In this document: positions 119 through 4,707 of the stretch, piece by piece
How positions within the stretch are numbered: the first letter of the stretch is position 1
How the letters are laid out: every line of letters begins with the position of its first letter
NCBI GenBank assembly: GCA_031409335.1
Contig: JANNWY010000071.1
Coordinates: 1 to 64,000, forward strand
Origin: Chthoniobacteraceae bacterium
Lineage (GTDB): Bacteria; Verrucomicrobiota; Verrucomicrobiia; Chthoniobacterales; Chthoniobacteraceae
Direction: 5' to 3'
Length of the DNA stretch: 64,000 bases
Translations under genes and position numbers: made by a program
The notes under the pieces: model-generated
The model's database searches: none
Seen by the model: only the letters and a program-made list of their open reading frames with translations
What the model was told of the DNA's origin: nothing

Positions 119-212
119 GGATTTGAGAAGCTAAACACATCTCCCAAAAAGTACATTTCTAGTAATTATAAACCGGCACCGCTGTTTTCATGCACCTCTT
201 TTAATCACACCC
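1..212 (-). mobile_element. Probable end of an insertion sequence
   Basis: AT-rich 120-200 segment. The minus strand from 212 reads GGGTGTGATTAAAAGAGGTGCA, an IR-like end. The neighbouring protein frame degenerates there (..KFRVRFDQ|GVIKRGA*). The partner IR is outside the window. Confidence 0.45.
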
Positions 213-2292
213 TGATCGAATCGCACGCGGAATTTCAGATCGGTCGCACCGATCGGAACGGTCAAAGTTAGAAAGATGCCCGTATCGTCCAGTTCCGTGA
301 GCGTGAATTCGCCCGCATTCTCCGTCACCTGCCCAAACGTCTCGAATCCGCTGAGCAATTGATCTGGAGGTGGAGGTGGCAATACACCAGCGACGGCCAG
401 CGCACGCGGAGCCTGTGCGGCAGCGACCGCGCCGCCTCCGCTCCAAGTATTTCCGAGGAACGGCGAAAAATAGAACCCGTCGCGCCATTCCCCGGCGTTC
501 CCGACGATTCGATGTACCACTCATGCGCTTCGCTGTGCATCGCGAAGAAGTCATCGAAGAAGTCATCGGTTGGACATGTGCCTGTAGATGTCGCATGGGC
601 CGCGCGGTAGCCCGCATCCGGAATGACGATCGGTTCGGAATTCAAAAACCGCGGGACATTCGATGTGGAGGAGGAAAAAATCAGCGAGGGATAAAAGGTC
701 CGCCGATCCGGGATCGTCTCCAGGGCCAGATTGGCCCGGCCGAGCTGAGTATCATATCGCTCGATCCGGCCACCGTGATCTTTCACCCCGGTAATGTGCT
801 CCTTCCGAAACAGCGGCGTGTCGAGCGTCGTCACCAGCAGCTTGGGCATCGCGTTCGCGTGATTCGCAAGCAATCTAGCGGCGCAAGTCGCCACGACAAA
901 TCCGCCCGCACTGTGGCCAACCAAGTGGATCTCTTCAGTAACGGAAATCTTGCCGATGGAGATTTGCGTCTCGATCCAATCCGCCAGAGCCGCACCCTGT
1001 CTGTCAGCGATTTCCCGGATGTATCGGAAGTCGGTGAGTTTCTGTTGAAGGGGAGTCAGCGCATCGTACACCACGGGAGCGAAGATCGGGCCGACCAGTA
1101 AATCCCGCCGCTCGCCGAGTTCAGCCAGCAAGTCTTTGGCCGCCTGATTTCGCGCATTGGTTCCCCGGTATTTTGAGGGGTCGGCGCTCTCACTCCAGTC
1201 GAAGAGCAGCACATTAGGCGGGCCATCTGCGGTGACCGTGAGTTTCGTCTCGATGGCCTCTGCCATCCGCACCATCCAGCCGCCGCAAGGATCGGCGGCG
1301 TCCGGCAATTCGACTCGGTCGATCAGGCCGTGCGCGACCACCAGCAGTCCCGCATTCTTCCGCTCGTCGCGCAGGTTCACTGCCGTCGATCCGTCGCTGT
1401 GGTAAAGTGTACCGGGCTCATTTTTCAAAGTCGTGGTCCTCTGGAGCGGCTGGCCCATTACCGGTGCCTTGTTGAGCGAAAGGAGGGTGAAGGCACTGCC
1501 GATTTTGCCGTTCGCATCGGTCATGGTTACGTCGAGTTGGCCTTGACCGAGAGGGCCACCCACCGGCTCTGCGAGGGTGAGGCTTGTCTGGTTCAAATTA
1601 TTACCACGCCAGCGCCATTGCACGTTGTTGAAAGGTGGCACGCCTCCGATCGCCGCTGCCGTAGCGTTGAGCGTCCACGAAGTTGTGGCACCACTCCCGA
1701 CGCCGATCGGCGGTTGCGCGCTCAGCGTTACATTCAGCGCCGGGCCGATCACTATCGAGCGCGGCGGCGAGGCGATTTGCTGGGTATTGCGCCAATAACC
1801 CGCGCGCAAAGTCGCCGTCACTGGCGTCGCGCTGTAGCCAGTGTGGAGAGTTCGCCCGATCATCCGCGTGTTAGCCGGGCCGCCCGTGACGCTCCAAGTC
1901 GCACGATCGCTCACGTCCTCCGGCGGCCCGTTGGAAAATGTCGCAGTCGCACTCAACGCAATCGCTACTCCGCCACTGACGCCCGGAGGAGCATTCACCG
2001 TCAGCAAGGTCGTAGTCGTATTCCGCGTATCCACCACAAATCCGCCCGACGCCCGGCTCCCGCTCAGCCCCGTCGGCCCTCTTGTGTTTACCGTGAAGCG
2101 ACCCGAAACCGCCACGCCCGTCGCACCCGGCGTCAGCGTATTGAGCACAAATTGGAGCGACACCGCCGTGCCCGTGCCGCCAGGCGTCAGCGTGTTCAGT
2201 TCGAAAGGGGGCGATTCATCGAAATTCGCGGCGGTGCCGACGCGTGTCAGCACCCACAGGATCGATAGGAGAATAGCGAGCCGTCGCATCAT
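188..2292 (-). pseudogene. Secreted multidomain protein (N-terminal repeats, Ig-like region, alpha/beta-hydrolase domain); frameshifted near 490 and probably IS-truncated at 212
   Basis: Signal peptide MMRRLAILLSILWVL, lipase-like LVVAHG and IHLVGHSAGG (GxSxG). ORFs 325..2292 and 188..520 join into ..HEWYIESSGTPGEWRDGFYFSPFLGN.. if one C is added to the C4 run at 490-493. Confidence 0.65.
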
Positions 2293-3224
2293 GCAGGGAA
2301 AGGGTTGGCGCGGGAATGTGACACGGGCTTTCCAGCCCGTGGTCCACCCGGCTCACAGCCTGTCAGGGCTGTGCTGATTTCCTCTTCTGCGACGGGGTTG
2401 AGAAGTGCGCCTTTGGCGGGGTGGGACTCACAGGCTGGAAAGCCTGTGTCACTCTTTTGCCAGAGATAGTATTCGTCTTCCTTCAGCCGCGCTTTTACCG
2501 GGTTTTCGGCAAGGTATCGCTGGAAGTGCGCGAGCTGCTCGCTGCTCCGCACGGTGTGATCGAAATTCTCATCCATCCACAGCGGCCCCGTCCGCCCGAG
2601 CACCCGATTGATCTCCCGCGCGCTAAATCCCTTCCACGATTGCAGGATGCTGGAGAGTGAATGCGAAAGTGACACAGGCTTTCCAGCCTGTGGTCCAAAA
2701 CCCTCCCCGCCCGACAGGGCGACACTCTTTCCTTCCTCACCTGCCGGTGGGGGAAGTGCGCCTTCGGCGGCGTGGGGATCACGGGCTGGAAAGCCCGTGG
2801 CACTATCACAGCCTGGAAAGGCTGTGTCACCTTCACAGATCGGCGTCACCAGCACATGCACGTGATTCGGCATGATGACCGCCCCATCGAGTTCATACCG
2901 CTCTCCGTTGAAAAAATGCAGCGTCCCGGAAAGGATGCTGCGCACGTCCGGGCGGCGCAGGACGCATGAGCCGTGGCCCGCATCCAGCCAGTGCTCGATA
3001 CGGTCGATAGATTCGCGCTGATAATCCGCCTGCACGCGCGGCGTCCACGGCTGCGGATTCAGCGCCAGCCAGCGTTCGCGGTCATCCTGCCATTCGCGGA
3101 GTTGCGACACCGGCAGCGAATCCGCGAGCCGCCAGGTGACGAAGTAAGTGCAACCCGCCTGCTCCCAATGAGGCAGATTCCGCCGCCGCTTCGCGATGTG
3201 CGCCGACTTATCGAGCGGCTTCAT
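2289..3224 (-). CDS. REP-associated tyrosine transposase (RAYT; Y1/HUH, IS200-like)
   Basis: RRNLPHW, YFVTWRLADSLP, HUH motif MPNHVH, SWKGFSA, LWMDENFDHTVR and catalytic Tyr in RYLAENP. Surrounded by REP hairpins. Confidence 0.9.
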   Translation of the reverse strand: MKPLDKSAHIAKRRRNLPHWEQAGCTYFVTWRLADSLPVSQLREWQDDRERWLALNPQPWTPRVQADYQRESIDRIEHWLDAGHGSCVLRRPDVRSILSGTLHFFNGERYELDGAVIMPNHVHVLVTPICEGDTAFPGCDSATGFPARDPHAAEGALPPPAGEEGKSVALSGGEGFGPQAGKPVSLSHSLSSILQSWKGFSAREINRVLGRTGPLWMDENFDHTVRSSEQLAHFQRYLAENPVKARLKEDEYYLWQKSDTGFPACESHPAKGALLNPVAEEEISTALTGCEPGGPRAGKPVSHSRANPFPA

Positions 3225-3453
3225 CGGCTAAAATGTGACACAGGCTTTCTAGCCTGTGAATGTGACACGGGCTTTCCAGCCCGTGATCCCCACTCCGCCC
3301 AAAGCGCACTTCTCCCCGAAATCGCGCACCCGAGGAAAATGAGTGCGCCTTCGGCGGTTGGTTTTGGATCACGGCCTGGAAAGGCCGTGTCACATTTCGG
3401 ACCACGGGCTGGAAAGCCCGTATCACAATGTGGCTCAGGCTTTCCAGACTGAG
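2318..3453. repeat. Ten copies of a 24-bp REP hairpin, consensus GTGACACRGGCTTTCCAGCCYGTG, in both orientations, forming REPIN-like doublets
   Basis: Copies start at 2318, 2429(rc), 2669, 2780(rc), 2807(rc), 3235, 3262, 3370(rc), 3403(rc), 3430. Doublets at 2318-2452, 2669-2803 and 3262-3393. Confidence 0.92.
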
Positions 3454-3531
3454 ATCGAAAGGCCGGGTCACAGGGTTTGCGGGCGCGTCGCACGGCTTCT
3501 GGCAAAGGGGAAGAGGGTCGGAAGCAAAAAA

Positions 3532-4707
3532 CTAAAGGCCACGAACACACCGGAAACCGAATGAATTGCCTGAGTTGAGCGGGTTAGCGAGGCCCCGAAA
3601 CGCGCAGCGCATAGAGGAAGAGGAAGAGGAGCCTGCGCCGTCGCCCCATCCACCGCCACGAATAACTCGGTAGGTACTAGGTGACGAGCCTCGGGGATTC
3701 GATCCAGCGTTGGGATCACTATAATATGAGCTTCCATACCAATCCCAGCACCACTCGTGCACGTTGCCGGACATGTCGTAGATCACGTAGCTATTCGCCA
3801 TATCTGGACCGACGGGAATCTGCGAACCGTTGTAGTAGCCGACCGGAGCGGTCGCAGGATTGCCACCTTCATACGGATCGCCGCTGCTGGAATAGTTTGC
3901 ATTGAAGTTTGAGAGCGAGTTTCCCCACGGATAATTGAGTTGCGTGTTCCCACCGCGGGCGGCTTTTTCCCACTCGGCCTCCGTTGGGAGGCGGTAGCCG
4001 TTAGCGGTCCATTTCACTTGGGCATTGGTGATTGACGTGTTTCCGGCCTTGTAGATGAGTGTCTGCGCGTCATCGGTGTAGTAACACGGCGTGAGACCTT
4101 CCTTTTGCGAGCGGGCATTGCACCATTTCACCATGTCATACCAAGAAATGCTTACGATTGGGTGGCTCTGCCCCGCCGCAGTTCCACCGGACATAGTATA
4201 ACCATTCGACGCGGCCCACGTCCTCACATTGGAAAACAGTGCCGAAGTCACCTCAAAACGATCCATAAAAAAGGCGTCGGTGAAAACGTTGTGGATGGGA
4301 CTTTCGTTCACTGCGGTGGAGCCCATCGAAAACGTCCCCAGCGGCACATAGACCATGCCGGCGGGCGGGGCGAGGCCGTCGTGGGCGGTGACTTTCACGC
4401 GCGTCTGCGCGGAATACTGGCCGTCCCAATCGAAGCCCGCATTCCACACCGCCGCCCGATTCGCGCCCGGCGTGACGCCGCTGCCGACCGCCCCGGTGAA
4501 GGTGAACGCGGGCACGGAGTAGGTGGTGCCGTTGTCATTCGAGACCTGAATCTCGACCGTGAGCGCGTCGCCATCGGCATCCGCGACATCGTAGTAGATA
4601 TCCACCAGCTTCGTCCCCGCCCGCTGCAAGGCGCGGATATTCGAGACGACGGGAGCGGCGGCGTGGGCGAGCGTGGCGGCGAGCAGGAGCGCGAGGAGCG
4701 TCTTCAT
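3532..4707 (-). CDS. Secreted formylglycine-generating-enzyme (SUMF1/FGE-sulfatase) domain protein
   Basis: Signal peptide; FSMGS, EVT, YRLPTEAEWEKAARGG, YDMSGNVHEWCWD, RVIRGGGW, GFRCVR. Confidence 0.9.
   Translation of the reverse strand: MKTLLALLLAATLAHAAAPVVSNIRALQRAGTKLVDIYYDVADADGDALTVEIQVSNDNGTTYSVPAFTFTGAVGSGVTPGANRAAVWNAGFDWDGQYSAQTRVKVTAHDGLAPPAGMVYVPLGTFSMGSTAVNESPIHNVFTDAFFMDRFEVTSALFSNVRTWAASNGYTMSGGTAAGQSHPIVSISWYDMVKWCNARSQKEGLTPCYYTDDAQTLIYKAGNTSITNAQVKWTANGYRLPTEAEWEKAARGGNTQLNYPWGNSLSNFNANYSSSGDPYEGGNPATAPVGYYNGSQIPVGPDMANSYVIYDMSGNVHEWCWDWYGSSYYSDPNAGSNPRGSSPSTYRVIRGGGWGDGAGSSSSSSMRCAFRGLANPLNSGNSFGFRCVRGL

Follow-up and report, generated by a model that had tools for sequence, protein, structure and literature searches.

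How does a RAYT (TnpA-REP) transposase gene come to carry REPs within its own reading frame, and what becomes of the enzyme? This question is raised by a 64,000-nucleotide stretch of DNA from a Chthoniobacteraceae bacterium (contig JANNWY010000071.1, positions 1 to 64,000), referred to here as the window. The gene, of a subclass 2.7-like type, lies on the minus strand (2289..3224) and encodes 311 amino acids. An earlier note, made from the sequence alone, had proposed that the enzyme targeted its own gene and tolerates the insertions. We consider it probable that an ancestor of this likely functional RAYT gained an in-frame REP doublet in a loop, that a flanking doublet at the C-terminal end came to be read as a tail, and that both are tolerated as what are predicted to be floppy passengers. 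The added peptide would probably need no function.

Judged by its sequence, the gene encodes a RAYT with HUH and Tyr motifs on an IS200-like fold. The frame is free of stops across all 311 residues, and H121, H123 and Y237 are invariant across aligned relatives, in agreement with the open frame and intact motifs described in the earlier note. The HUH motif, H121-V122-H123, is at 2856..2864 (minus strand; both histidines invariant in 29 aligned relatives). The catalytic Tyr237, in YLAENP, is at 2514..2516 (minus). W216-M217 (2574..2579, minus) matches W94-Q95 of the E. coli guide-binding pocket, with Met replacing Gln. The top structural match in Foldseek is E. coli TnpA-REP, 4ER8 (E 8e-5, probability 1.00), followed by IS200/IS605 transposases, which upholds the identity first given to the gene. 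Its named nearest relatives are mostly Verrucomicrobiota. NCBIfam NF047646 is matched (E 1.2e-15) with 57.7 bits in two stretches, the loop insert breaking the match; the cut-off is 80 bits, and insert-free members of the clade, at 61-78 bits, also stay below it. The protein matches no Pfam family at E 0.01, and promoter and terminator scans return one of each, no better than chance. No RNA data set is listed as a holder of the sequence, which has no bearing on whether the gene is expressed.

We find that the REPs occur both within and upstream of the gene. The REP is a 24-bp element with a GTGA foot, a perfect 7-bp stem without a bulge and a 6-nt loop. Ten copies lie within 2318-3453: five in the coding sequence, starting at 2318, 2429, 2669, 2780 and 2807, and five upstream, starting at 3235, 3262, 3370, 3403 and 3430. 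With up to three mismatches allowed, the window holds nine copies against none in 100 shuffles; the tenth (3430-3453) has four mismatches. Within the gene, a 162-bp in-frame block (2669..2830) carries REPs at 2807-2830 (minus), 2780-2803 (minus) and 2669-2692 (plus) and folds as DNA into a single long hairpin (z -7.6). A 135-bp in-frame doublet (2318..2452), with REPs at 2429-2452 (minus) and 2318-2341 (plus), codes for most of the C-terminal tail, and its spacer contains a degenerate eleventh hairpin (2354..2373). The extents of the block and the doublet agree with the earlier note, to which the degenerate hairpin is an addition. The upstream cluster of five copies (3235..3453) includes a 132-bp doublet (3262-3393), the spacer of which is homologous to both in-gene spacers. 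Rfam gives sub-threshold hairpin matches only.

The genome as a whole has 49 REP copies at up to five mismatches, with 10 at the window locus, 7 in a second RAYT cassette on contig C23 and 32 elsewhere. By-eye reading of the frames that cover them suggests that the dispersed copies are mostly intergenic. Long-spacer doublets that resemble the in-gene ones, and have related spacers, are also found at dispersed sites.

The 162-bp block falls in the beta3-alphaC loop (residues 129-189; 2658..2840, minus), which has 61 residues here and 5 in insert-free relatives. From the HUH motif to a conserved Trp-Lys there are 73 residues, compared with 17 in most homologues among the best 120 of 5460, and a profile alignment opens a single gap of 56 residues at the loop. 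The insertion at the HUH loop was therefore rightly located in the earlier note, but it measures 56 residues over the usual 17 rather than 54. Most homologues have the 17-residue form and not a non-REP loop of the same length, and a 51-nt loop is present in 163 of 180 locus records (duplicates counted). AlphaFold gives a confident core, mostly above 90 pLDDT, with most of residues 133-185 and 261-311 below 50; the loop insert and the C-terminal tail are predicted to be disordered. The frame is kept and other relatives also carry loop inserts, as would be expected of in-frame REPs in a tolerant loop.

Repeats of this kind could be joined wrongly in assembly, and no single Logan contig spans the loop block: the graph breaks at 2753-2803, in sequence common to other copies. 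A repeat misassembly is nonetheless barely conceivable. Contigs of two Logan runs that may be source samples of the assembly, X1 (2560-2782 and 2768-3201) and X2 (2560-2782 and 2768-2999), show 0 differences across both loop junctions, and the same layout is present in a paralogue and in proteins and loci from other samples. The earlier note had suggested looking for alleles that lack the block; none was found in runs X1, X2, X3 and X11, the contigs of which drop rare variants. The skips listed in those four runs stem from short doublets at other loci.

The paralogue, on C23, is 80% identical and has its own, different in-frame insert at the same loop; the two inserts are separated by five indels, all multiples of three. 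C23 duplicates the whole neighbourhood (window 212-4694) at 80-84% identity. This 4.5-kb duplication (G000:C23:10587-15035) takes in an FGE gene, the RAYT cassette and a large protein with TSP3 repeats. Its divergence is mosaic, the first 100 codons of the FGE gene being almost identical. The upstream neighbour (3532..4707, minus), an FGE-sulfatase-domain protein, is thus duplicated with the RAYT gene. The downstream neighbour (325..2292, minus), a large protein with a likely signal peptide, has a start that overlaps the RAYT stop. It is whole on C23; in the window it has a frameshift near 500 and is interrupted at 212 by a repeat (1-212), likely an insertion sequence, with 99-100% matches at the ends of six other contigs. 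Genome-wide, there are 14 RAYT-like matches from several subclasses, some of them broken.

The damaged downstream neighbour and the NF047646 score under the family cut-off would suit a dead or dying gene copy that REPs had invaded. We regard this as very improbable, because dN/dS is 0.23 against two relatives, the catalytic residues are invariant, and all five indels relative to the paralogue are multiples of three. For the core, dN/dS is 0.23 (0.13-0.37) against the C23 paralogue, with 0.24 and 0.14 for the neighbours, and 0.23 and 0.44 against the related loci L021 and L022, respectively. These comparisons indicate that the RAYT core is under purifying selection and not evolving neutrally, and that the enzyme is likely still functional. 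The insert and tail, with a dN/dS of 0.81 (0.44-1.54) against the paralogue, look near-neutral as protein. Divergence from the paralogue amounts to 3/120 in-gene REP bases, 19/147 spacer bases and 163/478 four-fold sites of the neighbours. It follows that the peptide varies freely while the hairpin DNA is held, through selection or through conversion among copies. The low divergence of the REPs does not specifically prove a function for them, since conversion reaches beyond the REPs and also covers the FGE gene start, where 0/26 four-fold sites differ between the paralogous blocks. REP-triggered gene conversion between the paralogues was rejected as unproven, the FGE gene start being equally homogenised.

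Loop inserts are old in this lineage. Our survey drew on the best 120 of 5460 homologues, of which 114 could be parsed and 6 were dropped. Loops at least 6 residues over the usual length occur in 32 of the 114, a figure inflated by the query, as protein matches are biased to open frames and query-like inserts. Most of these loops show REP-like peptides, of several types, and a few cannot be recognised. A quick tree of the 114 proteins, made without the loop, requires the insert label to change 5 times, with well-supported branches forcing 3 of these changes, which suggests at least 3, and likely 5, gains or losses. The window gene falls in an 8-member clade (support 99 in this quick tree), all eight members of which carry an insert, of 21 to 56 residues; length variation among relatives had been anticipated. 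Because the insert is common to the whole clade, it is judged to be old and no fresh jump, and the idea of a recent self-targeting by this copy falls away. One clade member, L239 (G118:C716), has a different insert of ~30 residues between alphaC and the pocket Trp.

The REPs within the gene follow those outside it. Among 165 distinct DNA loci, 5 have an insert, and a sixth such locus was found in a later search. All six, which are not independent, are in frame and have six different lengths; the same scan shows frameshifts in 2 insert-free loops. At each of the six, the in-gene REP is of the same type as the gene-flanking REP, in line with the view that the REPs are likely cognate. It is the dispersed variant of the own genome in genomes G131 and G462, and L057 and L252 have another REP family both inside and outside the gene. 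With an insert throughout the clade and an in-gene REP that matches the flanking or dispersed type, the insert site is old, and its REP cargo follows the REP population of the genome. The loop peptide matches the termini of its own protein better than the median of other proteins in 11 of 19 cases only. Searches for further insert-bearing genes gave 2 besides our own in 400 genomes of the order, 1 in 400 genomes of the class (at E 1e-60) and none among 14 extra stretches. A 71%-complete genome of the same genus, G093, has 19 copies of the same REP and a weak RAYT match only; two of its REP-rich stretches hold no clade RAYT.

What placed a doublet in the loop? We infer that it was the enzyme itself. 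In E. coli, TnpA-REP acts as a monomer: it binds the hairpin with its four-base foot, cuts at CT at a variable distance on either side and transfers strands (PMC3479197, PMC8266576). The enzyme studied here would likewise bind the GTGA-footed hairpin on single-stranded DNA, nick nearby and join strands. If, by analogy, it acts near its own REPs, its gene is exposed: REP-guided nicking and joining would cause doublets to land, or be copied, close to existing REPs, the gene included. An event would survive only if it left the frame intact and hit the loop or the tail, and a REP with a stop codon in just 1 of 6 frames would help in-frame survival. The internal doublet would then be refreshed from other copies via gene conversion or re-insertion.

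The main rival to an enzyme-driven origin is that the flanking doublets of the cassette recombined in the ordinary way, or that template switching took place between them, so that the internal doublet arose and stayed alike with the enzyme uninvolved. The upstream, loop and tail spacers are homologous, conversion tracts between the paralogues lie away from REPs, and the loop block is a very stable hairpin, all of which such recombination would explain. However, a first insertion into a 51-nt loop would find no homologous sequence there, the same loop is occupied in several lineages that differ in REP family, and similar long doublets are dispersed in the genome. We therefore consider this origin rather unlikely, although the insert-free relatives are all too distant for the junctions to be fixed and an insertion made by the enzyme to be distinguished from recombination.

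Part of the frame-keeping may be inherited with the cassette, since the upstream doublets, which here lie outside the gene, likewise span multiples of three. All doublets at both RAYT loci share this feature, compared with 1/6 of the dispersed doublets, and a three-base periodicity intrinsic to the element was rejected on these grounds. The upstream doublet shares the RAYT reading frame in the C23 paralogue and in several relatives. The whole cassette thus looks built for read-through, in keeping with the large number of relatives located within host genes: at 90 of 165 clade loci, the frame stays open for at least 200 further residues on one side or both. A minus-strand frame of 109 codons (3221-3550) stays open through the five upstream REPs, reading them in the register used within the gene, and stops across the RAYT start codon; the C23 block is in frame with its RAYT. 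This frame may be a relic of a read-through cassette. Four further RAYT domains with REP-like flanking peptides are in frame inside, or fused to, host genes on other contigs of the genome: G000:C92:8516-12547 (L017), C107:15502-19812 (L016), C96:33967-36828 and C190:3996-5417 (L018). Their host genes are a carbamoyl-phosphate synthase large chain, a UDPGP-domain protein, a RecG-like helicase (named by eye) and a metallo-beta-lactamase-fold protein.

Internal REPs might instead be kept for gene regulation, the enzyme nicking or excising part of its own gene, or an mRNA hairpin lowering translation, with REP spread limited as a result. As mRNA, the loop block reaches a folding energy of -103.7 kcal/mol (z -8.3), REP DNA has changed less than the spacers or the synonymous sites, and doublets separately bracket the HUH half and the Tyr half, which differ in four-fold divergence (9/61 vs 9/26, p 0.046). 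Yet the insert is absent from 82 of the 114 homologues, no contig is joined across the block in the four runs (contigs drop rare variants), conversion explains the REP conservation, and published loops of this kind are taken as harmless (PMC6006769). Regulation is thus distinctly improbable as the reason for keeping the REPs, and our data speak neither for nor against the autoregulation suggested in the earlier note.

A more far-reaching scenario, which we hold to be quite unlikely, starts from the guide pocket. A change from Gln to Met would have freed the lineage from a GTAG/GTGG foot, leading to GTGA hairpins and TC sites, and the retargeted enzymes would repeatedly insert doublets into their own gene. 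The guide rule published in PMC8266576 pairs GTAG with CT, GTGG with CC and GTAC with GT, and would predict TC, possibly TA, for GTGA. The gene would then be two REP-bracketed half-cassettes, an HUH half and a Tyr half, open to swapping, renewal or excision by the enzyme, so that the transposase edits and throttles its own gene. The equivalent E. coli residue, Q95 after the pocket Trp, is described as well conserved in subclasses 2.2, 2.4, 2.5 and 2.7 (PMC6006769). Met is at this position in 32/32 insert carriers vs 45/82 others, clustered on the tree. Foot and residue were compared for 71 of 165 loci, those where two or more hairpins have a foot and the residue is Gln or Met, the rest being dropped: Gln accompanies a foot ending in G in 43/47 and Met another final base in 18/24 (raw 61/71). 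On the tree, the residue changes 9 times and the foot 13 times, with 3 independent pairs on supported branches (median p 0.5). With only these three pairs, the covariation is not significant on the tree and the link between Met and foot is not established.

In-frame REPs within tnpA-REP genes have a precedent. Quentin et al. 2018 placed them between the HuH and Tyr motifs, in the beta3-alphaC loop, and described such insertion as unique to TnpA-Y1 subclass 2.4 (Bertels group 4); a joint paragraph on subclasses 2.7 and 2.8 mentions REP insertion in some (PMC6006769). The gene resembles subclass 2.4 in an in-frame REP insertion of variable length and sequence at beta3-alphaC, modelled there as a peripheral extension (PMC6006769). 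Set against the published description, it differs in having YLAENP and WM, not YIxNNP and WQ, and GTGA feet, not GT[AG]G. It also has D222 at the E. coli E100 position, where Asp is reported for 2.5 and 2.7 and 2.4 keeps Glu (PMC6006769). The marks of 2.4, including an 8-aa insertion ending alphaB, are compared here by published description only, and the 30 phylum loci contain no 2.4 reference.

The ties of the gene are instead to subclass 2.7. REPtrons of that subclass share [ND]HVH (NHVH at 120-123), Asp at the E100 position, a long variable N-terminus (~50 extra residues after beta1 here) and, per Table S1 of PMC6006769, the REP geometry of a 4-nt foot and 7-bp stem. Furthermore, plasmids gave a single full-length hit, a Bernardetia relative of the same layout. 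Its alignment to the clade profile extends over 175 columns (99.8%), and its flanking REP differs at 1 of 20 positions from the 2.7 REP that Table S1 gives for Flexibacter litoralis. WM, YLAENP and GTGA here differ from the WQ, YI[LR][NQ]NP and GT[AG]G feet of 2.7, while many clade relatives carry WQ with GTAG or GTGG feet. This suggests that the RAYT is 2.7-like but derived, tied to 2.7 indirectly, and that a trait called unique to 2.4 recurs in another lineage. Loop inserts for 2.7 do not appear in Table 1 of PMC6006769; Figures S6, S7, S10 and S11 may show 2.7 examples.

Comparison with better-known systems shows the same mixture of shared and distinct features. The HUH-Tyr fold, flanking REP doublets and the Trp and Arg of the guide pocket are conserved with E. 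coli TnpA-REP (4ER8), from which the gene differs in an extra helical region after beta1, a perfect REP stem without a bulge, in-gene REPs and a REP-coded tail in place of the inhibitory C-terminus. Intragenic REP dimers are reported as common in the verrucomicrobium Opitutus terrae (PMC3733652). Those elements and the Rickettsia palindromic elements are likewise palindromes translated in frame, often dimers (PMC3733652), although the host gene here is a transposase and the dispersed copies look mostly intergenic. The portions of PMC5581495 and bioRxiv 10.1101/2021.07.10.451892 available to us contain nothing on in-gene REPs, and a literature search that covered few subscription papers found none devoted to in-gene inserts of 2.7-type genes or to GTGA-footed REPs.

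The observation is real, old, tolerated and of a published kind, so that it is not unprecedented; it is new only in lineage and foot sequence. By extending a published oddity to a second RAYT lineage, it indicates that REPs land in this loop generally and not in one subclass alone. How the guide is read and the cut site chosen is described as still open outside groups 2 and 3 (PMC8266576). Both could readily be tested on the pairs that nature provides, insert-bearing against insert-free and Gln/GTAG versus Met/GTGA.
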